From the NCBI GenBank assembly GCA_964540475.1, contig CAZIMC010000002.1, forward strand, positions 111,551 to 175,550: a stretch of DNA of 64,000 bases. Reading direction: 5' to 3'. Below, piece after piece: positions 89 through 56,661 of the stretch. Within the stretch, counting starts at the first letter, position 1, and every line of letters starts with the position of its first letter. Source of the DNA: an uncultured Gammaproteobacteria bacterium (GTDB lineage Bacteria; Patescibacteriota; Microgenomatia; UBA8517). The notes beneath the pieces are model-generated. The model was not told the origin of the DNA. It searched no databases and saw only the letters and a program-made list of their open reading frames with translations. Position numbers and translations under genes: made by a program.

Positions 89-709
89 ATGTCAAGTCCG
101 GCTCATGGAGACTACTTACCCAAAGCTAATAAAAATCAAATTAAAAAGTTCTCCCATTACTTAGCGCCTGGTGAAAAAATGCAGTATTTAACAGGTCTTT
201 CGCCACTTCATTTATTTCGATTCGGAGTGCTTCGCTACCTAGTCCCGGGTATTCCGGTAATTATTCTTACAGTCATCTTTATGCAAATTGCAGGGGTACA
301 CCTGGTGTTTGGATTATTACTTGGATATTTTCTGGCTTTTATAGTTTCACTAATAATGGTCTATTTTGAGGCGGCAGGAACTCAGTATATTCTTACAAAC
401 AAAAGGCTTATTATGCAACTTGGATACTTCAATGTAAGTTTAACTTCCGCGGTGTATGACAAAATAACGCACGTTGAAGTGCGGCAAGGCTTTGTCGAGC
501 GGGCAATTTATAAATTCGGGAAAGTGATTATCCACACGGCAGGCTCAAAAAACAAAGAAATAGTTCTTGATAACATTGCCCACCCCCTTAAATTCAAGAA
601 CCTAATGGAAAAGCTTATTGACGAAGCAGGACAAAAAGAGAAAAAAGCTAAAAATGAAAAATACAAACCAAAATGGCGCCAAACCAGAGGGTTTAAAAAG
701 ATACTTTAA
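89..709 (+). CDS. membrane protein with bacterial PH (bPH_2, YdbS/YdbT-like) domain
   Basis: 206-aa ORF. Two predicted TM helices (LVPGIPVIILTVIF / LLLGYFLAFIVSLIMVYF). These are followed by YILTNKRLI...KITHVEV...VIIHTAG, a pattern typical of bPH_2 domains. Lys-rich C-terminal tail. Confidence 0.5.
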   Translation: MSSPAHGDYLPKANKNQIKKFSHYLAPGEKMQYLTGLSPLHLFRFGVLRYLVPGIPVIILTVIFMQIAGVHLVFGLLLGYFLAFIVSLIMVYFEAAGTQYILTNKRLIMQLGYFNVSLTSAVYDKITHVEVRQGFVERAIYKFGKVIIHTAGSKNKEIVLDNIAHPLKFKNLMEKLIDEAGQKEKKAKNEKYKPKWRQTRGFKKIL

Positions 710-1330: not shown

Positions 1331-1825
1331 GTGTATAATGCTTACATGGATATAGAAAAGATGTTAGCGCGAGGGTTGCAGAAAGGATTTGGCGGAGGCA
1401 CTGTTCGTCTTGGTGTTGGCCGAGGTGGTTTTGATGTGGAATCGAGTCACTTAGAGGGCGGGGGCAGTGTATATCATGACGAGTGGGTTGCTGATAGAGT
1501 AGGTGGTGGGCAAGAGTTGGTGCAAGTTGGGGATAGGATATATACGAGGGTGTACGCAGGTGGGACAATAGCCGAGAGTGAATTAAAAAGATTGGGGGTG
1601 ACCAAAAAAGAGGTAATTGCTTATTTGAAAAGTCAGATATTGCAAAACGGAGACAAGATAAGACTTCACAAAGATTTTTATCCAGAACCAGAAGGTGATT
1701 GGGGATATACGTATAAAATTATTGATAGCGAAGAAGGTGTTCCAATGACCACTGGAAAGGAATGCATTTACTACAAGGGACAAATGGTTTTTACACACAT
1801 ATTCCTTCTTTGCCCAGTAGAGTAA
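1331..1825 (+). CDS. hypothetical protein (Gly-rich N-terminal half; possibly DUF5680-like)
   Basis: 164-aa ORF with no overlapping alternative. Motifs YHDEW and YTRVYAGG. Family assignment is from memory only. Confidence 0.4.
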   Translation: MYNAYMDIEKMLARGLQKGFGGGTVRLGVGRGGFDVESSHLEGGGSVYHDEWVADRVGGGQELVQVGDRIYTRVYAGGTIAESELKRLGVTKKEVIAYLKSQILQNGDKIRLHKDFYPEPEGDWGYTYKIIDSEEGVPMTTGKECIYYKGQMVFTHIFLLCPVE

Positions 1826-1837
1826 CAAAATAGTTAT

Positions 1838-2407
1838 ATGACTGAGAATGTAGAGCCAAGAGAAAATTCTGAGATTTTGCAGGAGTTTCGTATTCGGCGA
1901 GCAACTGCCGAGGAGGCTCAAATTGTTTGGGGAATAATCGAAACTTGTGCTAAATGGCTATCTCAAAGAGGGTTAGAACATTGGGCACGTTATTATACAA
2001 AGGACATGGTTGATAAAATGATCAAAAAGAAAGATGTATTCCTGGCACTTAGTGACGGCAAACCTGTTGGGACAATCACAACCGGAAGTAACCCTCCTAA
2101 GTATTATAATGAAGCCGGGTATGCGGGGAAATTTACAAATCCGGAAGACCCGGCTGTTTATATAACGGCTGTTGCAGTGTTACCCGCAGAACACAAACGG
2201 GGGTTTGCTGGTCAAATGCTTCAATATATTGAAGACGAGGCATATCTGGCTGGCGCAGACTGGCTCCGGTTAGATTGCCGCGCCGAAGTGCCTGGACTGG
2301 TTGGCTTTTACGAAAAAAGAGGGTTTGTTAAACTTGGATCTTCTCCTGTTGATGAAGGCGAAGACGGAACATACTGGTTGATGGAAAAGAAAATAGCTAA
2401 AGCTTAA
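1838..2407 (+). CDS. GNAT family N-acetyltransferase
   Basis: 189 aa. Segments ITAVAVLPAEHKRGFAGQMLQYIEDEA and GFYEKRGF are typical of a GNAT core. Confidence 0.7.
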   Translation: MTENVEPRENSEILQEFRIRRATAEEAQIVWGIIETCAKWLSQRGLEHWARYYTKDMVDKMIKKKDVFLALSDGKPVGTITTGSNPPKYYNEAGYAGKFTNPEDPAVYITAVAVLPAEHKRGFAGQMLQYIEDEAYLAGADWLRLDCRAEVPGLVGFYEKRGFVKLGSSPVDEGEDGTYWLMEKKIAKA

Positions 2408-2852
2408 TTTCTGTAATATCCCAAGGATGTTTGTTGAGATCTGAATAGCGAATCCACTTGGGAGTGACTTTGAAGTAGGTAATACCTTTTCTTGATGCCC
2501 AACGCTCAGCCATTGGATTTTTCATCCAATACAATTTTTGGTACTTTTCTTTATTTTCACCAAACACCTCTTCCGCAATTCCTTCGTACTGAACTGTAAT
2601 GTTTTCATCCCAACCAATGACAAATGAAACATTCCTATTTGTTTGTAGATTCTTAAATTTTCTTGAGTGATCATAAGTATCAAATATTAGCTCAAATTCA
2701 CCAGACTCACCAAACTCCAAGACCGCTGATTCTGGTTTGTTGTCTGGACCAACCGTAGAGATGACGGCCAATTTTTGTTTTTTGATGAAGTTTAATATTT
2801 CTTCTTTCGTAACCACCAACCAATTATAACAATTTAAGAAATTATTTCTCAT
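2397..2852 (-). CDS. pyridoxamine 5'-phosphate oxidase-like FMN-binding split-barrel protein
   Basis: 151 aa. N-terminal ILNFIKKQKLAVISTVGPDNKPESAVLEF is PNPOx-like. Start codon CAT at 2850-2852 was verified. Confidence 0.6.
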   Translation of the reverse strand: MRNNFLNCYNWLVVTKEEILNFIKKQKLAVISTVGPDNKPESAVLEFGESGEFELIFDTYDHSRKFKNLQTNRNVSFVIGWDENITVQYEGIAEEVFGENKEKYQKLYWMKNPMAERWASRKGITYFKVTPKWIRYSDLNKHPWDITEIKL

Positions 2853-7823: not shown

Positions 7824-8066
7824 ATGAAAAGAGTGATGGAACCGAAATTATTATTCCGATATTTGGATAATGAAGATAGCGAAACTCGCCTTAAAACCGC
7901 ATATTGGAGGATATTTCGACAGGCACGAAAGAACTTAATTCGAAGAAAGAAAATGTTGGGGATAGATTATCTCCATACATATGAACTAATACCCGTGAAG
8001 AAAATAAAAATAAGAATAATTAACCCTGTTTTATACGACAGGGACAAAATAAGAATTTATGGATAA
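7824..8066 (+). CDS. small basic protein, possible recombination directionality factor
   Basis: 80 aa, Arg/Lys-rich. Lies immediately upstream of, and overlaps by 8 bp, the serine recombinase gene. Confidence 0.35.
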   Translation: MKRVMEPKLLFRYLDNEDSETRLKTAYWRIFRQARKNLIRRKKMLGIDYLHTYELIPVKKIKIRIINPVLYDRDKIRIYG

Positions 8067-9669
8067 TCATCTATCAAATGTATCGGGTTACTATGCCCGT
8101 GTTTCAACAGGCAGGCAGGAAAACGAAGAAACAATAGAGTCCCAGAAAGCAGAAATTAAGGAAAGAATAAAAAAGGATAATAATTATATTTCCCCTGAAC
8201 ATGAATTCTTTGATGACGGATGGACTGGAACAATACTAGCCAGACCTGGACTCGATGCCTTAAGAGATACAGTAAAGCGAAAAGAGATTAAGTATTTATA
8301 TGTTTACGATTTAGGTCGATTGAGCCGAGATTTTACTTATCAGTTATTGCTTCTAAAAGAGTTTGAGGACGAAGGGGTAAAGGTAATATCGCTACACGAT
8401 ATTAACCCTGAGAATGGTGAGCAAAACTTTATGCGTAATATCATGGGTGCCTTCCACGATTATGAACGTATCAAAATTGCGGAACGGTTCAGGCGAGGTA
8501 AATTGCATAAGGCAAAGAATGGCCTTCTAATCAATGGTCAAGGACTATACGGTTATACCTACATAAAAAAGACAGATAATAAACCACCCAAAATTGTGCT
8601 AAATGCAAAAGAAGCAGAGGTGGTGAAACTAATTTTCAATTGGTTAGGTAATGAAGGATATTCCATTAAGGAAATTGTCAGAAAGCTTTACGAGAAGGGA
8701 ATACAGCCGAGAAAGAACAAAAGCGAGTTTTGGAGTACAGGACCAATTCTAAGGCTTCTTCGGTGTGACTCTTATATTACAGGGGTGATTTACTATAACA
8801 AATCAGAAGCGATTGAAACTAAAGTACCTCGAAAAGAAGAAAAGTACAGGAAGATAAAAAAGGGGAGCAGACGGGTAAGGCCAAGGGCAGAATGGTATCC
8901 CTACAAAGTACCGAAAATCCTAGATGATTGGGATTTATTCAACCGAGTCCAAAAGATATTGGACAACAATCGAAGGCATGGACCGAGAAGAAAATCTTAT
9001 GACTATTTGTTATCAGGTCTAATATTTTGTGAGTGTGGTCAAAGGCGGGCAGGAAATGGGAAGAATAACGGGCATTACTATTATCGGTGTACTGACAGAA
9101 TTCTCAGGCATCCCTTACCTCCTGAATGTAAATCACCGGCCTTAAATGCCAGAGTACTCGATAAAGTGTTTTGTGATGAGCTTACGAAATACCTCACAAA
9201 TTCCAAGAACATCAACGAGATTGCAGAAGACTACCTCAAAGCTCAAGCGGTTGATGAAAGCGAGGAAAGAGAAAAGCAAGCACACCTTCATAACATTTCA
9301 AAGCTTGAGGAAGAAGAAAGACGCTGTATCAGGCTTCATGTTGAGGGAGAAATTGAGTTCGAGGAATTTAAGGAACTAAAAAGTGATATAAACAAACGAA
9401 GAAAGGATGAAGAAAACGAGCTAAAACGACTAAATGAGCTAACAAAGGATATAAATATCGATAACGTTGAGCTACAAGAATTCTGCCAAGAGGTGAAAGA
9501 AGTGTTACAGAGCCTCAATTACTCAAGTAAGTCTTTGTTAATTAGAGACGTAATTGATAAAATAGTCATGAAAGGAACAACAAATGAGGTTGAAGTTATG
9601 GGGCATATACCCATAAATCACCTAAATATCGGGTATGAACTTATCAGTAGGAATAGTGGGCCTACCTAA
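8059..9669 (+). CDS. large serine recombinase (integrase)
   Basis: N-terminal resolvase catalytic domain (YARVSTGRQENEE with the catalytic Ser region). Central recombinase domain. Zn-ribbon (CECG...C..C). C-terminal coiled coil. 536 aa. Confidence 0.9.
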   Translation: MDNHLSNVSGYYARVSTGRQENEETIESQKAEIKERIKKDNNYISPEHEFFDDGWTGTILARPGLDALRDTVKRKEIKYLYVYDLGRLSRDFTYQLLLLKEFEDEGVKVISLHDINPENGEQNFMRNIMGAFHDYERIKIAERFRRGKLHKAKNGLLINGQGLYGYTYIKKTDNKPPKIVLNAKEAEVVKLIFNWLGNEGYSIKEIVRKLYEKGIQPRKNKSEFWSTGPILRLLRCDSYITGVIYYNKSEAIETKVPRKEEKYRKIKKGSRRVRPRAEWYPYKVPKILDDWDLFNRVQKILDNNRRHGPRRKSYDYLLSGLIFCECGQRRAGNGKNNGHYYYRCTDRILRHPLPPECKSPALNARVLDKVFCDELTKYLTNSKNINEIAEDYLKAQAVDESEEREKQAHLHNISKLEEEERRCIRLHVEGEIEFEEFKELKSDINKRRKDEENELKRLNELTKDINIDNVELQEFCQEVKEVLQSLNYSSKSLLIRDVIDKIVMKGTTNEVEVMGHIPINHLNIGYELISRNSGPT

Positions 9670-13058: not shown

Positions 13059-14213
13059 TTGGTATTTATGAATAGAATTCCCTCAAGAGTATTGGTTATT
13101 TTAGTTGGCTTGGTTATTCTCGCCGTAGTCGCAACGGCTGGGGCGGTAGTTGACAGAATTGTTGGATTAAGACCTTTAGATAGATTTTTGGGACAGAGAA
13201 CAAATTTGATTGGAGAAGAAAGACGGATATTGAATGAGGAGTCAGTAGTTATTGACGTAGCCGAGTCGGTCTCTCCTTCGGTTGTTACAGTAACCCGGCA
13301 AACCGAAGCAAGGAGGATTTTGGAATTTAATCCCTTCGGTGGGTTTAGTTCAAGAGTTGAAGGAGGGCAGGACAGAGACATTGGAACCGGGTTTATTGTT
13401 TCAGAAGATGGGCTAATCATTACCAATAAGCACGTTGTGAGTAATACTCAGGTTACGTATAAAGTTGTGACAAGCGACAATAAAGAGTACGAGGTGCAAA
13501 GCATTGCACGCGACCCATCAAACGATATCGCAGTTCTCAAAATTGATGCTTCGGGTTTAAAACCAGTGCAGCTGGGGGAATCGGATAATCTTAAGGTCGG
13601 GCAATTTGTTGTTGCAATTGGTACTGCCTTGGGAGAGTTTAGGCATACGGTTACTACCGGCGTAATTTCAGGGTTAGGGCGTGGAATAGTTGCAGGAAGC
13701 GTTTATGAAGGCTTTGTTGAGCGCTTGGACGGAGTTATTCAAACCGATGCGGCAATTAATCCTGGCAATTCAGGGGGGCCTTTACTTAATTCCGCAGGAC
13801 AGGTGATTGGAGTTAATGTTGCTGTCGCAAGCGGGGCGCAAAACATAGGATTTGCAATACCCATTGAAGTGGTTAAAAACGCCTTAGATCAATATGGAGA
13901 AATGGGTGGAGTGTTTAGAAGAGCGTATCTCGGTGTTGAATACCAAGTAATTAGCGCACAAGCTGCAATCTTGAATGAAGTTCCCCAGGGAGCATACATT
14001 ACAAATGTATTATCTGGTTCTCCGGCTGAAAAGGCAGGCTTAAGAACAGATGATATTGTAACAAGAATGGACGGGCAGAATGTTACCCAAAGCACAAATG
14101 GATTGGTTGATATAATCTCCAAAAAACGCGTGGGAGACAGGGTCGATATGGAAATCTGGCGCAACGAACAAACTTTTCAAATTTCAGCAACCCTTGAGGA
14201 ATTCAGGGAGTAG
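13059..14213 (+). CDS. htrA: HtrA/DegP-family trypsin-like serine protease with PDZ domain
   Basis: Catalytic triad context: TNKHVV (His), DIAVLKID (Asp), GNSGGPLLN (Ser). C-terminal PDZ (LSGSPAEKAGLRTDDIV). Confidence 0.85.
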   Translation: MVFMNRIPSRVLVILVGLVILAVVATAGAVVDRIVGLRPLDRFLGQRTNLIGEERRILNEESVVIDVAESVSPSVVTVTRQTEARRILEFNPFGGFSSRVEGGQDRDIGTGFIVSEDGLIITNKHVVSNTQVTYKVVTSDNKEYEVQSIARDPSNDIAVLKIDASGLKPVQLGESDNLKVGQFVVAIGTALGEFRHTVTTGVISGLGRGIVAGSVYEGFVERLDGVIQTDAAINPGNSGGPLLNSAGQVIGVNVAVASGAQNIGFAIPIEVVKNALDQYGEMGGVFRRAYLGVEYQVISAQAAILNEVPQGAYITNVLSGSPAEKAGLRTDDIVTRMDGQNVTQSTNGLVDIISKKRVGDRVDMEIWRNEQTFQISATLEEFRE

Positions 14214-14642
14214 TTAGACAACTAACTGCGATTCAAGTTGTGTCCTAATCCTGCCTCGGGATCCTGGCGGGATACTTTTACAGGTAAAGCGAATCAAAGC
14301 TTGCTTGGCTGTTCGTAAATCTGCATTTGTAGTGTGGTACTCCTCAATGATTGGTAACCAGAGAATCTTATTGTTGAAACATTTTATAACTGTATCAAGA
14401 AACGCTGATGTTAATTCTTGCGGTATTTCCTCCCCCTGGCCATAAGAATCTGGCAGAACACTTCTTCGTGCATGAGTAACCAGGGCAGAAGCCATGGGGG
14501 TTTCGTAATCAATCCCGGGTTCTTTGGTTAGCTTAACATTCCTCCCTAGCATTAAATTTTTATACAAAGCTACACTGAAATCTGGTGGTAATACAGTAGA
14601 AATGGCTGCAGCTTGTGCGTATGGGTTACCTGTGTCCCCCAA
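14214..14642 (-). CDS. hypothetical protein; possibly the frameshifted C-terminal continuation of the upstream HExxH gene
   Basis: 142-aa ORF that starts only at a TTG. Different frame from the 14570-15628 ORF and overlaps it. Confidence 0.35.
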   Translation of the reverse strand: MGDTGNPYAQAAAISTVLPPDFSVALYKNLMLGRNVKLTKEPGIDYETPMASALVTHARRSVLPDSYGQGEEIPQELTSAFLDTVIKCFNNKILWLPIIEEYHTTNADLRTAKQALIRFTCKSIPPGSRGRIRTQLESQLVV

Positions 14643-15628
14643 GACCGAATGGCTTGTTGGGCAATTGCTAAAATTTGGCGTCTTTCCAGGTCAACCGCGG
14701 ATATTTTCATCAAAGTTTTATAATGACGGGCAATTTGCTCATCTTCCCGGAAAGTGTTTGCTGGGAAGTAAATTGCGTTGATAATATTGACCAATGCAAA
14801 ATTGATATCTTGAGAATCTGGACTTTGCAGCAGATTAACTAGGGGAAACTCCTTGCACCATAAATATGCAGGTAGCTCAATTCTCATTTCGCCTCGAGCA
14901 GTGTGAAGAATGCCTTTAAGCATTTTTTCATTTTCTTCCAAATCACCGGGCTGTATTGCCTCATTTTCTACTGTTCTTAATATTTCAGGTTTATCAATAA
15001 AGTTACTGACTCCGTAATCTTTGTAGTCGTATCCCATGGCCTGTTGCCAAACGTGTATGTCTTCGTGCCAAACGGTTGTTTGATATTCTTTCCGCCTTTG
15101 GACAACCGGCATTCTCCCGAGTTCAGTAGCGAAAAGACCAATAAAACCCCGCGGTCGGGTTTTACGAGTATGTTTCTTGCCAAATGAGTACTCTAATATT
15201 TTATCGAATTCAGTGCCGTCGGCTACCAGTCCTACCGAGAACAAACTCCACTCAAACTCAACTTTTCTTGGGTCTAAATCTAACTCACCTTCGCTGGTAA
15301 ATTTGATGGCACTCAACAGGTTTTTCTTAACCTCGATAGGATTTCTCCCCATTTTTGCTTGGCAAATTGCCCTTCTGTTCATTAAATTCCAGGTTTTCAT
15401 AAGTCCATTGACCAGAAGAAATGACCGTTGCCATTCGGTTAATTCACCCAACTCGGGAGTTGATGAGACCAAGCGTTCGGCCAATTCGTTTAAGGATGGA
15501 ATAAAGGGATAATTGTGAATATGCTTAAATGCAAGATCTTTCCCTGAAAGAAACATTTTTGCAGCAATATGGAACGTTTTTAGAGTTTGAGCTGGTGTTG
15601 GCACTTGCTCTGGAGCTCGCTCAATCAT
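14570..15628 (-). CDS. hypothetical protein with HExxHxxQQ (Zn-metallopeptidase-like) motif
   Basis: 352 aa. Contains WHEDIHVWQQ. Otherwise unrecognised. Its 3' end overlaps the next ORF by 73 nt in another frame. Confidence 0.5.
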   Translation of the reverse strand: MIERAPEQVPTPAQTLKTFHIAAKMFLSGKDLAFKHIHNYPFIPSLNELAERLVSSTPELGELTEWQRSFLLVNGLMKTWNLMNRRAICQAKMGRNPIEVKKNLLSAIKFTSEGELDLDPRKVEFEWSLFSVGLVADGTEFDKILEYSFGKKHTRKTRPRGFIGLFATELGRMPVVQRRKEYQTTVWHEDIHVWQQAMGYDYKDYGVSNFIDKPEILRTVENEAIQPGDLEENEKMLKGILHTARGEMRIELPAYLWCKEFPLVNLLQSPDSQDINFALVNIINAIYFPANTFREDEQIARHYKTLMKISAVDLERRQILAIAQQAIRSWGTQVTHTHKLQPFLLYYHQISV

Positions 15629-15703
15629 GTTAGTAGGAAATTATAACACCAATAAAAAGAACTACTATAAACAATATTTAAATTGATATATATTGTCTAG
15701 AAT

Positions 15704-16747
15704 ATGGCAGGGACTGAAAGAGATGATGTGGGCCGCGGGGAAATTCTCGGTGGCATACTCGCTGGGAGTTCAGAACGTAGTGGTGAGTATGCGGTTGTCA
15801 AAAATTATCCTCACGAAATGGTTTTGGGGACAAACATACGAGACAAAAATGAGGAGTTTGTAAGAAGGTTAGCCAAAAGCATAATTGCACAAGGCCAGAT
15901 ACAAGAGTGTACAGGTGACACTCTGCCAGATGGAAGAACAAGAGTTTGGGCAGGTCAACATAGGTTTTGGGCTGTTGAAATGATCAACCAGTTAGTGAAG
16001 GAGCATAATATTCAAAACCCTGATAATATTTTGCCCCTTACCAAGCTTCGCGTTCGCGTTTGGCCAATCGAGTTTACAGAAGATCAGATTTTAGAAGTAC
16101 AGATAGCAGAAAACTTGCACGAAAAAATGAACCCAGAAGACGAGGCTGAGGCAATTAGTGCAATTTACAGGTTATATGAGGCGAGGATAGGAGGTGCGGC
16201 GAGTGTAGCGGATTTTGCAAGAAGGGTGGGGCTGGGCGAAAGTAAGGTGCGAAATGCCGTGTGGTTTATGGGACTTGAGCCAAAAGTAAGAGAGGCTGTT
16301 GGTCGCGGTGTGCTTTTGTATAGTATTGCCATTTTGCTCAGAAGGGTTCCCCCGGAGAAACAGTTCCCTTTGGCTACACGGGCAGTTACCGGAAATCTCG
16401 ACCGCGAATCTGTAGAGATTTTGATTAGACAAACTTTGGGGGATAACGGTGCTATTGAAATGTTCACGGATCTAGTAAGGGCTCAGTTAGATGAGCAGAA
16501 TTTTACTATTGCATATAGAAACGCGGCAGACCGAGTAGCAAAAGAAGCGTCTGGTTATTTCAAGCGTATACTTCTACTTATCAACAGAGCTGATTATTCG
16601 GAAAGAATAAAACTCACGGAGCCAATAAGGGATATACTAGCTATGTTTATATTTGAAGCCCAGCAGTTCGAAAAGATATTAATGGAAATTGCCCCGCAAG
16701 TGCACCAAACTTTGTCTGTAAGGGTAGAAGAACTTGCGAATCAGTAG
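15704..16747 (+). CDS. ParB/Srx-like nuclease-domain protein with HTH (orphan ParB-like)
   Basis: ParB box-like VWAGQHRFWA. IAENLHEKMNPEDEAEAISAIYRL matches the ParB ENLQR..L.P.EEA region. HTH-like FARRVGLGESKVRNAV. No adjacent parA. Confidence 0.65.
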   Translation: MAGTERDDVGRGEILGGILAGSSERSGEYAVVKNYPHEMVLGTNIRDKNEEFVRRLAKSIIAQGQIQECTGDTLPDGRTRVWAGQHRFWAVEMINQLVKEHNIQNPDNILPLTKLRVRVWPIEFTEDQILEVQIAENLHEKMNPEDEAEAISAIYRLYEARIGGAASVADFARRVGLGESKVRNAVWFMGLEPKVREAVGRGVLLYSIAILLRRVPPEKQFPLATRAVTGNLDRESVEILIRQTLGDNGAIEMFTDLVRAQLDEQNFTIAYRNAADRVAKEASGYFKRILLLINRADYSERIKLTEPIRDILAMFIFEAQQFEKILMEIAPQVHQTLSVRVEELANQ

Positions 16748-16750
16748 TCC

Positions 16751-17482
16751 CTAATTTTTAAGTGCCTGTGTTGACTCGAGGATTTTCTCTAAGTTTCCGT
16801 CCACTATTGCTTCCAGATTGCCAAACGATTTACCAATCCGGTGATCAGTCACGCGGTCTTGCGGGAAATTGTATGTTCTAATTTTTTCAGAGCGCATGCC
16901 GCGCCCAATTGCGGAACGGTAACCTGCAATGGTTCGCATTTTTTCTTCCTCCTGCTTTTCCCAGAGCTTGGAGCGAAGTAGATTCATGGCAATTTCGCGA
17001 TTTCTTTCCTGAAAACGCTCTTCCTGGGATTGCACAACAATGCCTGTAGGTTTATGTTTAAGCCGAACGGCAGTTGAAACCTTTTGAACGTTTTGCCCAC
17101 CTTGAGAACTTGCCCTGAAAAAATCCCACTCAAGATCTGCCGGGTTAACTTGTACTTCAGAAGCTTTTATTTCAGGAAGGACCGCAACAGTTGCGGTTGA
17201 GGTATGAATTCTTCCGCGTTTTTCCGTTGCTGGCACTCTTTGGACCCTATGAACTCCCGACTCGTTTTTAAGACTTTCAAAAACGTCAAATCCAGTAATC
17301 CTTAGTGTAAACTCATCAACCGGGGAAACTTTCCAATTCTTTTTTGTGCCAAATCTTAGATACATGCGAAGAAGATCTGTGGCCCAATTTTTTGCCTCGT
17401 CTCCGCCTGTTGCACCACGAACTTCGAGATAGATTGTCTGATTGGAGTTGGAGTAATTGGAAGAATTATATTGGTAATTCAT
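16751..17482 (-). CDS. prfA: peptide chain release factor 1 lacking the N-terminal domain 1
   Basis: PAT tripeptide (RVPATEKRGRIHTS), which is RF1-specific. GGQ motif (SSQGGQNVQKV). Only 243 aa. Alignment starts at about E. coli RF1 residue 105. Confidence 0.8.
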   Translation of the reverse strand: MNYQYNSSNYSNSNQTIYLEVRGATGGDEAKNWATDLLRMYLRFGTKKNWKVSPVDEFTLRITGFDVFESLKNESGVHRVQRVPATEKRGRIHTSTATVAVLPEIKASEVQVNPADLEWDFFRASSQGGQNVQKVSTAVRLKHKPTGIVVQSQEERFQERNREIAMNLLRSKLWEKQEEEKMRTIAGYRSAIGRGMRSEKIRTYNFPQDRVTDHRIGKSFGNLEAIVDGNLEKILESTQALKN

Positions 17483-17842: not shown

Positions 17843-18796
17843 TTAAACCTCAGGCTCAACAGGCTTAAATAGATTTCCCATTTTGCCTTTGAATTCAGCG
17901 ATAAATACTCCAGTAACGATAATAATGGCGCCAATTACAAAGGGTGCAGTTATTTTTTCTCCAAGCCATAAAACTGCCAAAGGAGTTGAAAATATCGGGT
18001 AAAGATAGGAAAACACGGAAGCATCACCCACTTCAATGGTTTTCTGGGCTTTGTTAAATAGATAGTATGCTAAGTTACCGGACAGAAATGCCATGTAAAA
18101 AACCCCTAGATGGTAACTTATAGGCATGACTGTTACTGTCTGGATAAATTGTGCGTAGCTGCTTGTTGACAAGCTTACTATCAAAAAAGTTAAAAATCCA
18201 ACAATAAACGAAAGACTGACGAGCGTAGATGGGTTTACGCCATTTCGAAGAAGCCGTTTAGCTAAAAGTGTTGGCAGGATATTTGCGACTATGTAAAGAA
18301 ATATTAATATGTTTCCTGAAAACCTAAGCTCTCCATTGCCGTTTAAAAAAAGCGGCTCGAATACTGTAAATAGAGTTCCCAATAGGGCAATGCTCATGCC
18401 AATTTTTTCCCGTTTAGTAACATGCTCGTGTAAGAAGTATGCCCCTGCTGTTGAAGTTAAAAGAGGAACTGCCAGGGTGATAATTGTCATCTCTAGAACT
18501 GTTGTGTTTTGAAGACCGAAGAAAAGAAGCCCCAGCGAGACCGCAGAACTAAATAAAGCGTGTACAAAGAGAAATAGCTTATATTTGTGTTCTTTGGGTA
18601 ATTTAAAACCATGTAACATGAAAGTTATTAACCCAACGATTGCAGATAAGCCAAAGCGGTATGTTAAGAAGGGGATAGCATCAATTCCACCCAAGGTATA
18701 TTTAATTACCGGACTTGCAATACCCCAAATGGCCGTTACTAGAAGAAGTATTGCATATGCTTTAAGTCGGGAAGATTGGGGCAAAATCGATTTCAT
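17843..18796 (-). CDS. EamA/DMT-superfamily transporter
   Basis: 317 aa. About 10 TM helices in two EamA-like halves. Confidence 0.75.
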   Translation of the reverse strand: MKSILPQSSRLKAYAILLLVTAIWGIASPVIKYTLGGIDAIPFLTYRFGLSAIVGLITFMLHGFKLPKEHKYKLFLFVHALFSSAVSLGLLFFGLQNTTVLEMTIITLAVPLLTSTAGAYFLHEHVTKREKIGMSIALLGTLFTVFEPLFLNGNGELRFSGNILIFLYIVANILPTLLAKRLLRNGVNPSTLVSLSFIVGFLTFLIVSLSTSSYAQFIQTVTVMPISYHLGVFYMAFLSGNLAYYLFNKAQKTIEVGDASVFSYLYPIFSTPLAVLWLGEKITAPFVIGAIIIVTGVFIAEFKGKMGNLFKPVEPEV

Positions 18797-19698
18797 GACG
18801 ATTCAATTAATCGATCTAAGCCGAAAGCAAAGCCAACTGCAGGAATCTGTTTTCCGGCAAACATGCCAATTAAGTTGTCATATCTTCCGCCCCCTCCAAC
18901 AGATAAGTCTTCAGGTTTACCGTTTGGTTTAAGCTCGAATATTGTGCTTGTATAATAGTCTAATCCTCTTGCTAGGGTGGGATCGTAGAAGAAATCAAAA
19001 CCCTCCTTGAGCGAATATTTGTCTTTGAGAATCTCAAATATATTATTCAAATGGGCTGTCTTGGGGGTATCATCGATTTTATCGATTAAACTTGTATCCT
19101 CATTAGAATAACCTTTATCAATTAACTCTTTTTTTACTCCGTCTTTGCCGATTTTATATATCTTATCTATTGCACGTACAAAATCGGGTGTCATATTGGC
19201 AAAGTTGGCTCTATCATTTATTGCCATTTTGGCGGAAGTTAATCCTAGTTTTCTAGCTGCTGTAACTGCAGCAGCTATGACCTTCGCATCCTCGTCAACT
19301 AAATCGCTACCTACAATGTCAAAATCAAACTGTGTGAATTCACGGAAACGGCCACGCTGCGGATTTTCACCTCGGAATACTTGGCCAACTTGATATCTTG
19401 AAAACGAAGGTGACAAAAGATTCTGGTTGTTGGCAATAAAACGGGCCAGGGAAACAGTTAAGTCGTACCGTAAAGCCAGCTCGCGGCCCCCCTTATCCAT
19501 AAATTTATAAATAAGTTTTTCCTCTTCGCCGTATTTCCCAAGCAAAGTTTCTGCAAATTCGACAGTTGGTGTTTCAAGAGGAGTAAAGCCAAAATTTTCT
19601 AAAACGTCTGCTATTTTATTGATAGTCTCACGGCGTTTTTTTGCCAGACTGGGCAAAATATCCCTAAATCCTTTTGGTGTTGGCGGGCCCTTTTTCAT
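18793..19698 (-). CDS. hisS: histidyl-tRNA synthetase-like class II core without anticodon-binding domain
   Basis: Motif 1/2 region (FRDILP...ALRYDLTVSLARF...FRGENPQRGRFREFTQFDFDIVG). HisRS motifs RGLDYYT and GGGRYD. Ends at GFAFGLDRLIE after 301 aa. Confidence 0.65.
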   Translation of the reverse strand: MKKGPPTPKGFRDILPSLAKKRRETINKIADVLENFGFTPLETPTVEFAETLLGKYGEEEKLIYKFMDKGGRELALRYDLTVSLARFIANNQNLLSPSFSRYQVGQVFRGENPQRGRFREFTQFDFDIVGSDLVDEDAKVIAAAVTAARKLGLTSAKMAINDRANFANMTPDFVRAIDKIYKIGKDGVKKELIDKGYSNEDTSLIDKIDDTPKTAHLNNIFEILKDKYSLKEGFDFFYDPTLARGLDYYTSTIFELKPNGKPEDLSVGGGGRYDNLIGMFAGKQIPAVGFAFGLDRLIESS

Positions 19699-32494: not shown

Positions 32495-32903
32495 CTTCAA
32501 ATTTTCAATTTGCAATTTTTAATTTTCATAAGCAATAACCTGAGAATAGAGGAGGGGGTAGGATATCCTATATTTATGTTATATACATTTGTGAAAGAGA
32601 TAAGGTTTTCATGAATATTATGGGATTTTTCACAAATTAACAAATTGCGACACTAGTAAACAAAACCCGAACCTAAAGCTTGAGAGAATAGTATAGTATG
32701 ATATAGTTAGTAGGCACAAAACCTTCATCATACCCTCTAAGATGTGGATAAATTACTAATTAGTCTTACATAGGAGTTACCGGTATCCTCGGAGTAGAAG
32801 ACCCTTTAGAATGCCTTTAGTAAGCTTGTTGGCGTGCTCTTCGAGCTTGCTAGCTTGTTCTGGTATTCAGTTATGAATACCAAAGGAGAGGTTAAAATAT
32901 AAT

Positions 32904-32999
32904 ATGTCGTACAATATAACTTTTACGACGTATTACATACCACCAGGAGTGGGGTGCTTTTTATCTTATTTTTTAGTTTACTTTGGCAAAAACCTGTAA
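32904..32999 (+). CDS. candidate small hydrophobic peptide (31 aa) in AT-rich gap
   Basis: AAAGGAGAGG SD about 12 nt upstream of the ATG. Peptide MSYNITFTTYYIPPGVGCFLSYFLVYFGKNL. Not in the ORF track (<60 aa). Speculative. Confidence 0.2.
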   Translation: MSYNITFTTYYIPPGVGCFLSYFLVYFGKNL

Positions 33000-33657
33000 C
33001 TTATATAATATTTATCTGTTTGCTCTGCTTTTAGGAATTGCTATAAATATTTCCACTCCGAACAAACACCGAATATTATTTAACGATTTTTTAAGCTCTC
33101 CCCTAGTCTGGTTTAAAATTTGTCGGTATTACTTTATCCCGATATTTCGGTTAATATAAAAGATGAGTGTATACCCATCTTTGGCCTCAGACAGGCCTTA
33201 GAATCGATTTGGTGAGGTCCCGTTTGTGTCTAATCTAGATAAACTAAAAGTGATAAAATTACTTGTATGTCTACAGAGCATGAGCTAGATAAGAGTTCAA
33301 TTAATACATCCAGAGAGAAAATCAAAAGACTTTCGGAATCACTTATAAATTTTGGTTGTGCAACGGGACGGCTTAGTATTGTTACAATTGGCTTAATGAT
33401 TACGTTGACTGCAAACTCCAGTGAATACAAAGACTTAATTGCTGAAAGTATAAAGAAATGGAAGAAGAAAAATATCTAAACGAGTAGCGTCGCACATTGT
33501 ATTACTCCACAATCAAATCCGTAAACTATACATAATTTTAAGCAAAACTTTATTTTCCAAAGTGCACTTACGACTTATAGATAAAGATAAAACCCTTACC
33601 CTTCCCCACTCCGATTTGTATAGTTGTTAAAATTGCAAATTGCTTTAGAATGCGATT

Positions 33658-45900: not shown

Positions 45901-47658
45901 TTGAGTCATAATGTTTACGATATGCCATTTCCTGTCCCTAATGCCACACCTATTGAAAACGATGTGGTCACGTTAGCGGATATATTAGTTCAACTCGGCG
46001 CTTTAGACGAGGCTCGTGCAAAGCAGGTAAAACTTGCTGAAATACAAACCGGAACCTCACAAGAAGACATTATAAAGCAGCAAAAGCTGGTTGATGAGGT
46101 AAGTTTGGTAAAGGCTAAGGCCAAGCTATATAACGTCCCGTTTATTGACCTAGGGTTGGTGCCAGCCTCACCCGAGGCGCTATCTATCCTTCCTCAGGAA
46201 ATTGCTGAGCGTTTTAAAGTTTTTCCCGTTTCTTCTGATCAACAAAGCAAAACCCTTGTTTTGGCAATGAGCGATCCATTGGATTTAACCGCTATTGAAT
46301 TTATTGAACAGCGAACAGGCTTAAGAGTCAAAGCCGAGGCAGCTGAACCTAGCAAAATTACTGAATATATTTCAACGAGATATGCAGGTTCATTGTCACA
46401 AGAAGTCACTGAGGCATTAAAAGAAGTGGACCCGGGAAGAGACAATGGCAGAAATTTGGATGTAAGCAGAACTGGGGTTATAAGAGAGGAAAAAATTGCA
46501 GAAATTGTTTCGCATGTTCTGGATTTTGCAGTTCGGGCAAGGGCTAGCGATATCCATATTGAACCACAAGAGCAGTCTACACGAGTTCGGTACAGAATAG
46601 ATGGTATTCTTCAAGAGAAACTGGCCATACCAAAACAGCTTCATGATTCGCTTTCATCACGGATCAAAATCTTAAGCGGTATGAAGATAGATGAAAAACG
46701 AGTGCCGCAGGACGGCAGATTTAACTTTAAAACGTCAGATGAAGAGGTTGACCTTCGTGTCAGTTCCCTTCCCACGTCCTGGGGAGAAAAAATTGTTATG
46801 CGTTTGCTTAAAAAAACTGGGGGCGTCCCTACACTTAATGAGTTGGGGTTAAGGGGTGGCGCTCTTAAAAATTTAGAGAATGCAATTTTAAGACCACATG
46901 GAATAATTTTGATCTGTGGTCCAACCGGTTCTGGAAAAACCACAACTCTATACTCAATAATTTCAAAAATTAATACGCCTCGGGTAAACATTGTAACCCT
47001 GGAGGATCCAATAGAGTATAAAATTCCGGGGGTAAATCAGGTTCAGGTTAACCCTGCGGTGGGGCTCACTTTTGCCTCAGGGCTACGTTCATTTTTACGG
47101 CAAGATCCTAATGTAATACTGGTTGGTGAAATTCGTGATAAAGAAACCGCTGAGCTTGCAATCCAGGCTTCTCTCACGGGCCATTTGGTCTTTTCGACTC
47201 TTCATACAAATGACGCTGCAGGGGCGCTTCCCAGACTTTTAGATATGGGTGCTGAGCCGTACCTCCTGGCTTCCTCAATGACAGCTATTGTTGCCCAGCG
47301 TGTGGTGCGCAAAATTCACGACAAATGTAAAACCACAGACGTAGCCAAGCCTGAGGTAATTCAGGAGATTAAAAGCGGGTTGGGCAATATTTGGCCGGCT
47401 GACAGGCAAATTAATCTATATAAAGGTTCGGGCGATGAAGAGTGTGGAAATAGCGGATATTTGGGTAGAATTGGAATTTTTGAGGTAATCCCCGTAAGTG
47501 AGAAAATTGGAAGGTTAATACTTGAGCGCTCTCCTGCCGTAACCATAGAAAAACAGGCGCGTGAAGAGGGGATGGTTACTCTTAAACAGGACGGATACTT
47601 AAAGGTTACAGAAGGTTTGACTACAATGGAAGAAATTCTAAGAGTGGCTCAGGAATAA
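45901..47658 (+). CDS. pilB: type IV pilus assembly ATPase PilB (GspE family)
   Basis: GSPII_E_N N-domain. Walker A ICGPTGSGKTTTLYS. Zn tetracysteine. 585 aa. Confidence 0.9.
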   Translation: MSHNVYDMPFPVPNATPIENDVVTLADILVQLGALDEARAKQVKLAEIQTGTSQEDIIKQQKLVDEVSLVKAKAKLYNVPFIDLGLVPASPEALSILPQEIAERFKVFPVSSDQQSKTLVLAMSDPLDLTAIEFIEQRTGLRVKAEAAEPSKITEYISTRYAGSLSQEVTEALKEVDPGRDNGRNLDVSRTGVIREEKIAEIVSHVLDFAVRARASDIHIEPQEQSTRVRYRIDGILQEKLAIPKQLHDSLSSRIKILSGMKIDEKRVPQDGRFNFKTSDEEVDLRVSSLPTSWGEKIVMRLLKKTGGVPTLNELGLRGGALKNLENAILRPHGIILICGPTGSGKTTTLYSIISKINTPRVNIVTLEDPIEYKIPGVNQVQVNPAVGLTFASGLRSFLRQDPNVILVGEIRDKETAELAIQASLTGHLVFSTLHTNDAAGALPRLLDMGAEPYLLASSMTAIVAQRVVRKIHDKCKTTDVAKPEVIQEIKSGLGNIWPADRQINLYKGSGDEECGNSGYLGRIGIFEVIPVSEKIGRLILERSPAVTIEKQAREEGMVTLKQDGYLKVTEGLTTMEEILRVAQE

Positions 47659-47660
47659 AT

Positions 47661-48719
47661 ATGAATTTAAGAGAACTACTTCAATTGGTTGTTGAGAGGA
47701 ACGCGTCGGATCTTCATCTGGTTAGCGGGTTTCCGCCAGCTTTAAGGGTAGATGGGGCGTTGTTCCCCGTTCCCGGGGAGGCTGTATTGACACCTGATAC
47801 TGTGGCTCAACTTCTAAAGGATGCACTAAAAGCCGACATTTTAGAGAGGCTTGTTAAAAATAAGGAAGTTGATTTCTCACTTGCCTACTCCGAAAAAGCC
47901 AGGTTTCGTGTTAATGCATACACCCAAAAGGGATCGTGGGCGGCGGCTTTTAGAAGAATCCCGATAGATATTCCTTTTATAGACTCACTTGGACTACCCA
48001 AGGTTTTGCATAATTTTGTTAATTTAAGGCAAGGTTTAATACTGGTTACAGGTCCAACGGGACACGGGAAGTCAACCACGCTTGCCTCAATCTTACAGGA
48101 AATAAACACCTCACGTGCTTGCCATATAGTGACCATTGAAGACCCGGTTGAATTCGTGTTTAAACCTGTAAAATCAATCATTTCCCAAAGAGAAATGTAT
48201 TATGATTCACTTTCCTGGCCGGTAGCACTAAGATCGGTGTTGCGGGAGGATCCGGACGTTGTCCTAATCGGTGAAATGCGTGATCATGAAACAATTGCTT
48301 CGGCTCTAACAATTGCCGAAACCGGGCACCTGGTTTTTGCAACCCTCCACACAAATTCTGCGGCGCAATCAGTTGATCGTATTGTTGATGTTTTTCCGGA
48401 CGAACAACAGGACCAGATCCGTCTGCAGCTTTCAAACGTTATCGAAGCTGTTTTCTCTCAGAGGTTAATTGAGGCTGCCAGCGGTGGACGGGTTGTAGGA
48501 TATGAATTAATGCTTGGAACAACTGCTATCAGGACCACGATACGCGACGGAAAAACTCACCAGATCGATAACATCATTCAAACCTCTCAGGAAGCCGGTA
48601 TGAACTCGCTTGAGCAGTCGCTTGCAGAACTAGTTAAAAAGGGAAAAATAACTCTTGATATTGCACAAAGCTACTCCTTAAGGCCAGATGAGCTGGCAAG
48701 ACTGGTAAGAACTGTTTAA
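47661..48719 (+). CDS. pilT: twitching motility (retraction) ATPase PilT
   Basis: Walker A LVTGPTGHGKSTTLAS. AIRN..R motif region. 352 aa. Confidence 0.9.
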   Translation: MNLRELLQLVVERNASDLHLVSGFPPALRVDGALFPVPGEAVLTPDTVAQLLKDALKADILERLVKNKEVDFSLAYSEKARFRVNAYTQKGSWAAAFRRIPIDIPFIDSLGLPKVLHNFVNLRQGLILVTGPTGHGKSTTLASILQEINTSRACHIVTIEDPVEFVFKPVKSIISQREMYYDSLSWPVALRSVLREDPDVVLIGEMRDHETIASALTIAETGHLVFATLHTNSAAQSVDRIVDVFPDEQQDQIRLQLSNVIEAVFSQRLIEAASGGRVVGYELMLGTTAIRTTIRDGKTHQIDNIIQTSQEAGMNSLEQSLAELVKKGKITLDIAQSYSLRPDELARLVRTV

Positions 48720-48722
48720 CCG

Positions 48723-49928
48723 ATGAAAAGATTTATCTACAAGGCAAAAGATGCCCAAAACCGTCTTATAACTGGTGAGGTAGAAAGTACAAATATACAA
48801 ACTGCTGCCAAACTTGTTAGACAAAGAGGCTTGATTGTTATCTCACTTAAGCCCATCGGATTTAACCTGATAACTTTTGTAAGAAGTTTTAGGGACAGGA
48901 TTACTCAAGCTCAAGTATCAAATGTCACAAGACAGCTCGCAACAATGGTAAATGCAGGACTGCCGGTTACTGAATCATTGTCGATTCTGCGGAGCCAGAC
49001 CAAAGGGCTTCTTCAGAAAGTCCTGGGTCAAATTTTGGCAGATGTAGAAAGCGGTGAACCGTTAAGTAAGGCTTTGAGTAAGCACGACAAAGTGTTTACT
49101 CCAACATATATTGCATTGGTCAAATCGGGTGAATTAGGGGGAGTTCTTGACGAGGTGCTGCTGCGGCTTGCTGATAATTTGGAAAAACAGGAGGAGTTTA
49201 AAGGTAAGGTAAAAGGTGCACTTATTTACCCGACCATTATCGTCATCGGTATGATTGTTGTGGGATTTGTTATGATGATTTTTGTTGTCCCCCGCTTAAC
49301 TTCCCTTTACGTTGACTTTGATGCGGAACTTCCCGTACCAACACAGATATTAATGGGCCTATCCTCCTTTATTGCCCGCTTTTGGGTGTTACTCCTGGTT
49401 TTGGGGGGCTTAGGTTTATACACATTAAACCTGTACCGCAGAACCCAGGAAGGTAAAAGAAAAACCGACGAGCTAGTTTATAAAATTCCCATAATCGGTG
49501 AACTTAGTAAAAAGATTACTTTAACAGAAGTTACCAGAACACTTTCCTTAATGGTTGGATCAGGCGTTTCGATTTTGGAGGGGCTTAATATAACCTCTTC
49601 CATTGTCGGTAATAGTGTTATTTCAGATGCCTTAAGAGACTCCTCAAAACAAGTAGAAAAAGGGTTTCCTGTGTCTTTTGCTTTTGCAAGGCATTCGGAG
49701 GCTTTCCCATATATTTTGTCCCAGATGATTGCAGTTGGAGAGGAAACTGGAAAGATGGATGAAGTTTTGGGAAAGGTAAGCCATATATTTGAAATTGAAG
49801 CAGACCAAAAAGTAAAGGCATTAACTGCAGCGGTTGAGCCACTTATAATGGTTGTTTTGGGGCTTGGGGTGGGGTTTTTGGTGATTGCGGTAATTCTTCC
49901 AATTTACAACCTGACAACTCAATTTTAG
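48723..49928 (+). CDS. pilC: type IV pilus platform protein PilC (GspF family)
   Basis: 401 aa. Two T2SF repeats. 3 TM segments. Confidence 0.85.
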   Translation: MKRFIYKAKDAQNRLITGEVESTNIQTAAKLVRQRGLIVISLKPIGFNLITFVRSFRDRITQAQVSNVTRQLATMVNAGLPVTESLSILRSQTKGLLQKVLGQILADVESGEPLSKALSKHDKVFTPTYIALVKSGELGGVLDEVLLRLADNLEKQEEFKGKVKGALIYPTIIVIGMIVVGFVMMIFVVPRLTSLYVDFDAELPVPTQILMGLSSFIARFWVLLLVLGGLGLYTLNLYRRTQEGKRKTDELVYKIPIIGELSKKITLTEVTRTLSLMVGSGVSILEGLNITSSIVGNSVISDALRDSSKQVEKGFPVSFAFARHSEAFPYILSQMIAVGEETGKMDEVLGKVSHIFEIEADQKVKALTAAVEPLIMVVLGLGVGFLVIAVILPIYNLTTQF

Positions 49929-49939
49929 GCCTTAAGCTA

Positions 49940-49968
49940 TTGACAGTAATTTGTGAATAGTAAATACT
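49940..49968 (+). promoter_or_regulatory. putative sigma70-like promoter (TTGACA-N17-AATACT) for the major pilin gene
   Basis: Read from the sequence. Leaves a roughly 130-nt 5' leader that contains the C6/G7 complementary tracts. Confidence 0.3.
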
Positions 49969-50099
49969 TAAAATGTAAGCTCGGTTTAGTCATTTCTGCC
50001 AATGATTATTTTTCAACATTCCCCCCTAATCATTAATAGTTGTGTCTTAGTTTTGCATGTTTTGCGAACTAAGCATAAACGAGGGGGGGTGAAAATAAT

Positions 50100-50711
50100 A
50101 TGAATTTAAGACAAAAAGGCTTTACGCTTATTGAACTCTTAATTGTTATTGGACTCTTGGCAGCAATTGCTGTTATAGTTTTGGCTGCAATTAACCCAAT
50201 TGAACAGGCAAACAGAGCGAGAGATACCAGATACGCAACTGAAGCTTCGGAAGTCGTTAAAGCTGTCGAAAGGTATTATGCTACCAGACAAGAGTTTCCC
50301 TGGGTTGGTGACGGTACAACAAGTATTACGACGAGCAATGCACAAGCTTTAGTATATGAAAGTGTTGATCGTGCATTTTTAGGCATTTGTGGGACAAATT
50401 GTGACACACCGGGAGCTTTAATAAATAACCAGGAACTGCGTTCTGATTTTTTAAACAAAGATTTCATTGAGCCACAGGATACAGTAGATGAGCTTTGGAT
50501 TGGAAAAGAAGCAAACGACGATTCAACGGTGTATGTGTGTTATATTCCAGTTTCGAGGTCAGCCAAGGAGACTGCAGTTGCAAACAACAACGCTTGGACG
50601 TTAACGGCAGGTAACGGTGTAAGAACTGACGTATCTGGAGGAGCAAATCCTGCAAATCCGGCAGACAATTGGGCAACTGAAACACCAGCCATATATACTT
50701 GTTTGCCTTAG
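50100..50711 (+). CDS. type IV (major?) pilin, prepilin-type N-terminal cleavage/methylation domain
   Basis: KG-FTLIELLIVIGLLAAIA class III signal with Glu+5. 203 aa. Strong SD. Long leader. First pilin after pilC. Confidence 0.8.
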   Translation: MNLRQKGFTLIELLIVIGLLAAIAVIVLAAINPIEQANRARDTRYATEASEVVKAVERYYATRQEFPWVGDGTTSITTSNAQALVYESVDRAFLGICGTNCDTPGALINNQELRSDFLNKDFIEPQDTVDELWIGKEANDDSTVYVCYIPVSRSAKETAVANNNAWTLTAGNGVRTDVSGGANPANPADNWATETPAIYTCLP

Positions 50712-50783
50712 TGTGTTGAGGAATTTCTATAGCCCGAGTCTTTACAAAAGGCTTATTAAAACATTATTGTAAAGATAAGGGCT

Positions 50784-51560
50784 ATGGAATATTTCTTATT
50801 CGCAGTATTAGGTCTCGTAGTTGGCTCATTTATAGCTGCTCTAACCTACCGTTTGCCTAGAAATATTTCAATTGCAAAAGGCCGGTCAAGATGCAATTTC
50901 TGTAAAAGCCAAATTGCGTGGTATGACAATGTCCCCCTTATTTCCTTTTTCATTCTTGGAGGAAGATGCAGAAGTTGTAAAAAAAGTATCTCACTACGCT
51001 ACCCAATCATCGAAGCTTTGACTGCAGCGACTTTTTTGCTAACACCAGTTTTTTACCCTCACTTAACAAAAAACTTAAACTTTCTTTTCAGTACTTTTGC
51101 ACCACTTTCATTGGCTTTATTGTTAGTTGTCTTTTCAGTCCTAATCGCAATATTTGTTATAGATTTGGAGCATCAAATAATTCCCGACCTGCTTACCTTC
51201 ACTCTCCTGGGTATACTGGTATTTTATCTTTTACTTATTTCATATCCGGATCTTTTCCTTAGCTTTTTCGCTGGTTTATTGTCTGCTTTGCTGCTTCTGG
51301 CAATTCACATGCTTACTAAGGGGCGTGGTATGGGGTTAGGGGACGTAAAGTTTGCAATTTTTGGTGGAATGTTTCTTGGGTATCCCCTATTTTTGGTCTG
51401 GCTGATGGGAAGTTTTGTCTTGGGAGCAATTGTTGGAGTTATATTGATACTAATTGGAAGAGCAAGTTTTGGTAAACAAATTGCTTTCGGGCCTTTCCTT
51501 GCCCTTTCCTTGATTTTGACCGCCCTTTTTGGGAATATGGTACTTAAGCTTTTCGTATAG
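50784..51560 (+). CDS. pilD: prepilin peptidase (A24 family) PilD
   Basis: N-terminal Zn-binding CNFC...CRSC. Polytopic. Catalytic Asp regions (IPDLL; GLGDVKF). Confidence 0.85.
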   Translation: MEYFLFAVLGLVVGSFIAALTYRLPRNISIAKGRSRCNFCKSQIAWYDNVPLISFFILGGRCRSCKKSISLRYPIIEALTAATFLLTPVFYPHLTKNLNFLFSTFAPLSLALLLVVFSVLIAIFVIDLEHQIIPDLLTFTLLGILVFYLLLISYPDLFLSFFAGLLSALLLLAIHMLTKGRGMGLGDVKFAIFGGMFLGYPLFLVWLMGSFVLGAIVGVILILIGRASFGKQIAFGPFLALSLILTALFGNMVLKLFV

Positions 51561-51565
51561 CAAAA

Positions 51566-52117: not shown

Positions 52118-52135
52118 GAGCAAAATGGAACAAGC

Positions 52136-53121: not shown

Positions 53122-53128
53122 TGATAAA
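52828..53128 (+). repeat. 301-bp perfect direct repeat, copy 1 (3' two-thirds of a pilin gene plus start of the next)
   Basis: Base-for-base identical to 53796-54096 when compared by eye. Offset 968 bp. Confidence 0.9.
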
Positions 53129-53588: not shown

Positions 53589-53597
53589 TCACTCAAT

Positions 53598-54089: not shown

Positions 54090-54096
54090 TGATAAA
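53796..54096 (+). repeat. 301-bp perfect direct repeat, copy 2
   Basis: Identical to 52828-53128. Confidence 0.9.
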
Positions 54097-54580: not shown

Positions 54581-54591
54581 TATTATCTTAT

Positions 54592-55098: not shown

Positions 55099-55116
55099 AT
55101 TTGCTATAGTTAGTAT

Positions 55117-56614: not shown

Positions 56615-56661
56615 TTAAACCTGATTGACCTTACTACAAGCTATTGTTAAACTGATTACGT

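Follow-up and report, generated by a model that had tools for sequence, protein, structure and literature searches.

Do the two overlapping ORFs at 14214..15628 represent two genes, a single gene decoded in two frames, or a single gene that has been broken? The window, by which we mean the whole 64-kb stretch of DNA analyzed here, encodes both ORFs on its minus strand. ORF1 (15628..14570; 352 aa, ATG start, frame 0) carries the sequence WHEDIHVWQQ, and ORF2 (14214..14642; 142 aa) lies in frame −1 and has TTG as its sole mechanical start. They share 73 nt, the frame of ORF2 is offset from that of ORF1 by +2, which is equivalent to −1 ((15628−14642) mod 3 = 2), and the ORF2 frame opens at 14690, 3′ of a TGA at 14693. 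The coordinates, the length of the overlap, the TTG-only start, and the WHEDIHVWQQ sequence had all been reported in the initial annotation and were accurate on recheck. We propose, with high confidence, that the locus is a single gene in which a non-programmed change of 1 nt has disrupted the frame.

Two ORFs and their single-ORF relatives

What do the relatives of these ORFs look like? When the fused protein was compared with 5.8 billion proteins in a word-indexed search, five relatives besides ORF1 itself were returned; they are 463–473 aa in length and 43–46% identical to the query, and each spans 98–100% of it. The family is rare, uncharacterized, and restricted to one lineage, and an exhaustive profile search of 1.84 billion representative proteins identified only 29 HExxH-family members. 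Approximately 23 of these 29 representatives align over about their full length, and every one of the 23 is a single ORF of 456–483 aa. The alignment of the fused protein to its relatives is colinear from start to stop: MIERAP at the beginning aligns with MVERFP or MTERF, and QLVV followed by the stop codon aligns with ERLxV followed by the stop codon. One family member, P0010 (SRR4030042_1337402), is 344 aa long and ends with EYHGPQN, a few residues beyond the point that corresponds to the frameshift; this end is probably a truncation at the end of its contig.

When the single-ORF relatives were used as tblastn queries, each matched two colinear segments of the window in different frames. The first segment pairs query residues 1–327/329 with 15628..14639/14630 in frame 0, and the second pairs residues 330/332 to the end with 14627..14217 in frame −1, scoring 104–128 bits on its own; in the same type of search ORF2 is 45% identical to residues 332–469 of the relative P0002. 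Residues 1 to approximately 331 of ORF1 match the family, and the last 21 or so residues (TQVTHTHKLQPFLLYYHQISV) are an out-of-frame tail for which the family alignment contains no counterpart. ORF2, in turn, encodes the C-terminal 140 or so residues of the family, including its THARR, YGQG, and KSxPxGxRG motifs. Because the tblastn match falls into two segments and the colinear relatives are single ORFs, we conclude that ORF1 and ORF2 are pieces of one gene. The whole disrupted gene occupies 14214..15628 on the minus strand and comprises approximately 471 codons after one base is restored. The initial annotation had read the pair as one gene of about 480 aa interrupted by a frame shift and had called for an inspection of orthologues. 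That reading is borne out, with a single −1 change: the full-length orthologues are single ORFs, and an independent overlapping pair was not found among them.

Where does the frame change lie? The codon of the frame-0 Trp (14641..14639) aligns with a conserved aromatic residue of the family (Y/W), and the frame −1 Gly-Asp (14639..14634) aligns with the conserved G-[D/P/A/N] next to that aromatic. Since the Trp matches in frame 0 and the Gly-Asp in frame −1, the change can be placed within a G5 homopolymer (TCT TGG GGG ACA; 14640..14636, minus strand), with a net loss of 1 nt. Adding one G to this run yields a single 471-codon ORF with one terminal stop. The TTG assigned as the start of ORF2 overlaps the G run, and we therefore regard it as a mechanical by-product of ORF calling. 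We propose the following course of events. An ancestral G6 run would have lost one base to give the G5 run at 14640..14636. Ribosomes starting at the ATG at 15628 would then lose the conserved frame past Trp-330/Gly-331 and terminate at 14572..14570, giving a 352-aa protein that would lack the conserved C-terminal 140 or so residues, and ORF2 would be the untranslated remainder of the gene.

Mutation, assembly error, or recoding

Is the missing base absent from the genome or only from the assembly? On balance we lean toward a genuine and fairly recent inactivating mutation, which would make the locus a young pseudogene or truncated allele of an unnamed HExxH-family gene likely encoding a zinc-dependent hydrolase. 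We slightly favor such a mutation over a homopolymer assembly error. The loss of one base in a homopolymer is a typical sequencing or assembly error, and if such an error occurred here, the genome itself carries six G's and the 471-codon gene is intact, one base having been dropped from the consensus. The shift sits exactly in the G5 run, the restoration of exactly one base recovers full colinearity, the start and stop positions are conserved, and ORF2 contains no stops and shows the similarity to its relatives (45%) that a functional gene would show. We consider this artifact possible, short of probable, for the reasons that follow.

First, the remainder of the window contains no comparable break. 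Nine neighboring genes (S6, SSB, S18, Ctp, HtrA, RF, L31, EamA, and HisRS) equal their orthologues in length, and ten further ORFs, drawn from overlapping same-strand pairs, have complete Pfam architectures, which argues that the assembly is not riddled with indels. The 64-kb window contains 465 homopolymers of at least 5 nt, and despite this number a comparable break was seen in none of its other genes. Second, the substitutions in the window are unevenly distributed. At columns conserved in at least 80% of the family, the window has mismatches at 0 of 24 positions upstream of the shift and at 3 of 14 positions downstream; the eight closest intact relatives have 3 mismatches in 112 at the same downstream columns (Fisher p = 0.04 and 0.018 for the excess in the window). 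Similarly, the ratio of C-terminal to N-terminal identity is 0.74–0.91 for the window versus 0.86–1.09 for intact relatives. The excess, which is confined to the region downstream of the shift, is a weak hint of relaxed constraint, and the signal amounts to three to five substitutions that are mostly conservative (W to Y, V to L, L to M, V to I, and A to T).

Third, a second family member has been disrupted by other means. The orthologue at locus L012 (JGI 3300041077, contig Ga0452210_170896) contains an in-frame TAG at 328..330 (CTG CTG TAG GCT), in a column that is F, Y, or L in all relatives, and the gene is split into called genes of 103 and 166 aa. The L012 gene was thus disrupted independently, by a substitution, and the gene is evidently dispensable in some lineages. 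The age of the event in the window is constrained by ORF2 itself: none of its 142 codons is an internal stop and it shares 45% identity with P0002, so the event is either recent or artifactual. A second copy of the window's allele was sought and not found, either in the GTDB representatives, which yielded one relative only, or in the metagenome collection, which yielded four loci from other strains. As in frameshift-disrupted pseudogenes and homopolymer indel errors generally, a short homopolymer has changed by 1 nt and so split a conserved ORF whose orthologues elsewhere are intact; the split HExxH gene belongs to this class of frameshifted genes and indel errors and has no feature that distinguishes it from them.

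Could the shift instead be made by the ribosome? Programmed −1 sites such as those of dnaX and the IS3-family transposases likewise have ORFs in frames 0 and −1 that overlap and jointly encode a longer protein, and the initial annotation had raised recoding as an option. A tRNA-Gly in the P site would slip on G_GGG within U GGG GGA, giving products of 352 and 471 aa. Such slippage is conceivable on chemical grounds but has no support here: the tRNA-Gly on GGG (14638..14636) could move back by one base and pair perfectly with 14639..14637, and the slipped product would read SWGDTGNPY, as in the family. Unlike the dnaX and IS3-type sites, however, the HExxH gene has no slippery heptamer, no stimulatory structure, and no conservation of the shift. 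From 14690 to 14572, no heptamer of the form X XXY YYZ occurs in frame; the sole heptamer, AAATTTT at 14676, is in another frame and precedes the homology-defined junction. A 101-nt stretch that includes the site and sequence downstream of it gives no signal for a stem-loop or pseudoknot (z = −1.24; 24 of 200 shuffles fold equally well or better), and Rfam has no match at the frameshift site, its only match in the whole window being a tRNA. Conservation of the shift among homologues is a hallmark of recoding, and the approximately 23 full-length relatives all encode the protein in one frame. Because there is no in-frame heptamer, no significant structure, and no relative in which the shift is confirmed, we regard programmed frameshifting as very unlikely. 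More exotically, the G5 site might permit −1 slippage at a low level, such that truncated and full-length protein are both made.

Least credible is a pair of independent genes, one for a 352-aa HExxH protein and one for a TTG-started 142-aa protein: both ORFs are open and ORF1 passes as a protein with gene callers (P0001 in a public collection), but no relative is so arranged, the two parts always being fused in one frame, the TTG overlaps the G run with no Shine-Dalgarno-like sequence upstream, the final 21 residues of ORF1 are unmatched in the family, and the orthologues, being single ORFs, refute the idea.

The ParB-like neighbor and the surrounding genes

Is the HExxH gene functionally paired with the gene beside it? 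Divergent from it lies a ParB-like gene (15704..16747, plus strand; 347 aa), which matches PHROG ParB-like profiles over residues 42–225 (E = 1e-7) and Pfam HTH_ParB with 22.8 bits against a cut-off of 22.6 (1e-4), and whose homologues (42–50% identity) carry PF17762 and PF02195. The gene is flanked by the release factor (RF) gene and the HExxH gene, and the adjacent ParA of a ParABS operon is absent; in addition, the ParA-type deviant Walker A motif (KGGxGK[ST]) does not occur in any frame of the 64-kb window. The head-to-head ParB-like gene with no parA partner is therefore just as the initial annotation had described it. The two genes are separated by an AT-rich intergenic region of 75 nt (15629..15703), in which a scan for consensus promoters returned one minus-strand site (15699..15671); the number of sites in the region is not above that in shuffled sequences.

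The initial annotation had further hinted that the two genes form part of a conflict system. Their head-to-head arrangement across a shared 75-nt region and the lack of ParA in the window are what might be expected of a two-gene conflict or defense module, but we consider such a module highly improbable, since the pairing is confined to this window. In related genomes, the slot upstream of the HExxH gene is filled by unrelated genes: an HD-domain gene in L011, a Methyltransf_21 gene in L014, a 245-aa protein of no recognized family in L016, and a 343-aa acidic protein in L002, L010, and L015. A ParB-like gene was sought at the HExxH loci of the relatives examined and is absent from them; likewise, tblastn found none of the neighbors of the relatives' HExxH genes in the window. 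Conversely, homologues of the ParB-like gene occur with no HExxH gene beside them. In L019, a 45%-identical ParB-like gene adjoins RF-L31-EamA-HisRS, and in L020 the ParB-like gene is in a different location altogether. Systems databases also argue against a module. PADLOC returned no credible match, its only hit being a non-significant "Effector peptidase" for P0002 alone (E = 0.017, 11.6 bits), a scan of viral contigs contained no relatives, and the HExxH protein has no PHROG match. Finally, both genes lie within a conserved housekeeping neighborhood (S6-SSB-S18-Ctp-HtrA on one side and RF-L31-EamA-HisRS on the other). We propose that the HExxH and ParB-like genes are adjacent only because the variable region that separates two conserved blocks is, by chance, short here.

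An HtrA-type serine protease gene with Trypsin_2 and PDZ domains according to Pfam (13059..14213, plus strand) lies convergent to the HExxH gene, whose stop codon it adjoins without intervening bases, and is the conserved neighbor of the family. A convergent HtrA gene, followed by Ctp and S18-SSB-S6, is found beside the HExxH gene in L001, L002, L012, and L014–L016; in L013, the HtrA-like neighbor is cut by the end of the contig. The HtrA/Ctp arrangement is kept even for a HExxH family member that is only about 26% identical.

Several features of the neighborhood and of the rest of the window can be recorded in their own right. The stretch 15629..16750 and its equivalents in L002, L011, L014, L016, and L019 constitute a variable slot between the RF-L31-EamA-HisRS and HExxH-HtrA-Ctp-S18-SSB-S6 blocks; depending on the genome, it contains ParB-like, HD-domain, Methyltransf_21, or dNK-like P-loop proteins, or proteins with no recognized domain. 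The release-factor gene (16751..17482, minus strand) encodes 243 aa with a complete RF-1 domain; PCRF matches only profile positions 97–194 of 194, and the N-terminal 110 or so residues of canonical RF1/RF2 are missing. A short release factor (228–233 aa) is also encoded in L011 (1356..2057), L016 (4496..5188), and L019 (4652..5338), and its conservation in three related loci indicates that it is not a truncation artifact. Similarly, the HisRS gene (18793..19698, minus strand) encodes 301 aa that comprise the catalytic core only, with no anticodon-binding domain. L016 has the same form, of 303 aa (1736..2647), and the HisRS of L019 (6777..8093) is 438 aa long with HGTP_anticodon. Directly upstream of ychF and the S6-SSB-S18 genes is a large serine recombinase gene of 536 aa (Resolvase, Recombinase, and Zn_ribbon_recom; 8053..9669, plus strand), which may be what is left of an integrated element or a marker of one. 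A type IV pilus cluster occupies 45901..58604 (plus strand) and includes a PilB-like ATPase (45901..47658), a PilT-like ATPase (47586..48719), a T2SSF/PilC gene (48720..49928), PilM (57552..58604), and approximately ten tandem ORFs of 160–190 aa (51548..56614). The N-terminal methylation motif is present in two of the three tandem ORFs tested, and one of these two also matches GspH; because of the motif and the GspH match, the tandem ORFs look like pseudopilins. Finally, the 1.15 kb at 32495..33648 contain no ORF of at least 90 aa and no Rfam match at gathering thresholds.

The HExxH family, its predicted fold, and its place beside HtrA and Ctp

What kind of protein does the intact gene encode? 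The residues that are invariant or nearly so in the family are, in ORF1 numbering, P41, R86-A87-x-x-Q90, H188-E189-x-x-H192, D229, E251, W257, N284, and P348, and the conserved C-terminal motifs THARR, YGQG, and KSVPxGxRG lie 3′ of the frameshift. The HEDIH motif (H188, E189, and H192; 15067..15053, minus strand), as read from the sequence, is a putative metal-binding and catalytic site; its H188, E189, and H192 do not vary in the alignments of 6 and 23 sequences and are at least 90% conserved in the 25-row alignments. The repaired protein contains no transmembrane segment (the maximum Kyte-Doolittle value over 19 residues is 1.17), and because it has no hydrophobic segment, it is probably soluble and cytoplasmic.

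Database searches connect the family to no known group. Pfam, NCBIfam, and PHROGs gave no credible match when queried with ORF1, ORF2, the fused protein, and the relatives; the PDB, searched by sequence and by profile with three alignments, yielded no match at E ≤ 10; and a second profile search, to which distant members had been added, brought in no new annotated relatives. The initial annotation had noted a resemblance to DUF4157 (PF13699), a HExxH domain tied to extracellular contractile injection systems (PMC8213781). The two are alike in having a short HExxH followed by Q at +3 (HExxHxxQ), and in the window's family this Q is present in 20 of the 24 rows that span the motif; the second Q is not conserved. 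With hmmscan, PF13699 does not match ORF1, ORF2, the fused protein, or any of 25 family members even at E ≤ 10, nor does any other Pfam peptidase family match these 25 members at that threshold. Genes for contractile injection systems or tail-like structures are likewise absent from the window and the related loci examined, where the context is HtrA, Ctp, S18-SSB-S6, RF, and L31. By profile, the family is distinct from DUF4157, and the unconserved second Q and the housekeeping context also set it apart.

Structure prediction suggests where a catalytic core might lie. The AlphaFold2 model of P0002 (pLDDT 80, pTM 0.76) is mostly helical, with a four-stranded sheet that precedes the HExxH helix. 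The central domain of the window's protein (ORF1 residues 108–268; 14825..15307, minus strand) is a candidate gluzincin-like catalytic core, and its model (pLDDT 90) contains, in order, two strands, a helix, two further strands, the HExxH helix, and a long helix. The HExxH residues lie in the helix spanning residues 75–90 of the domain model, and the long helix that follows carries E251 and W257. This order of elements is that of a minimal gluzincin core, which the predicted topology would resemble; in the structural comparison, no match was significant, all scores falling below significance. The family has in common with the gluzincin and minigluzincin peptidases of the MA clan (thermolysin-like, and M48/M56-like minimal cores) a HExxH motif on a helix. 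It is unlike them in having no sequence or profile similarity to any Pfam, NCBIfam, or PDB peptidase family, and in its large flanking helical domains (with RAxxQ, THARR, YGQG, and KSVPxGxRG), which have no counterpart in gluzincins.

By analogy, H188, H192, and a downstream carboxylate would bind the metal, and E189 would serve as the general base. We favor E251 (codon 14876..14878, minus strand), which is at least 90% conserved in the 23-sequence domain alignment, as the candidate third ligand; otherwise D229 would take this role. The catalytic core would sit between N-terminal and C-terminal helical domains. The intact protein is most likely a zinc-dependent hydrolase, probably a peptidase, an assignment in which both metal binding and activity are deduced from the motif and the models.

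Finally, what does the split gene mean? It is an ordinary gene disruption or an assembly error, and neither a case of recoding nor part of a ParB-linked defense system, and it has no bearing on any long-standing open question. In annotations, the interval 14214..15628 should be entered as a single frameshifted gene, whether as a pseudogene or as one in need of read-level correction; it should be listed neither as a pair of hypothetical proteins nor as a site of recoding. With regard to the family, its members stay convergent with HtrA and Ctp even at about 26% identity and so might act with both. The gene also appears to have been lost repeatedly, by the frameshift in the window and by the nonsense codon in L012. 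We raise, as a speculative and rather doubtful extension, the idea that the family is a previously unrecognized group of zincin-like metallohydrolases in a small bacterial lineage, which may join HtrA and Ctp in protein quality control and has repeatedly been lost. A rare HExxH family that occurs in small genomes and keeps a fixed place beside HtrA and Ctp could merit description as a new domain family.
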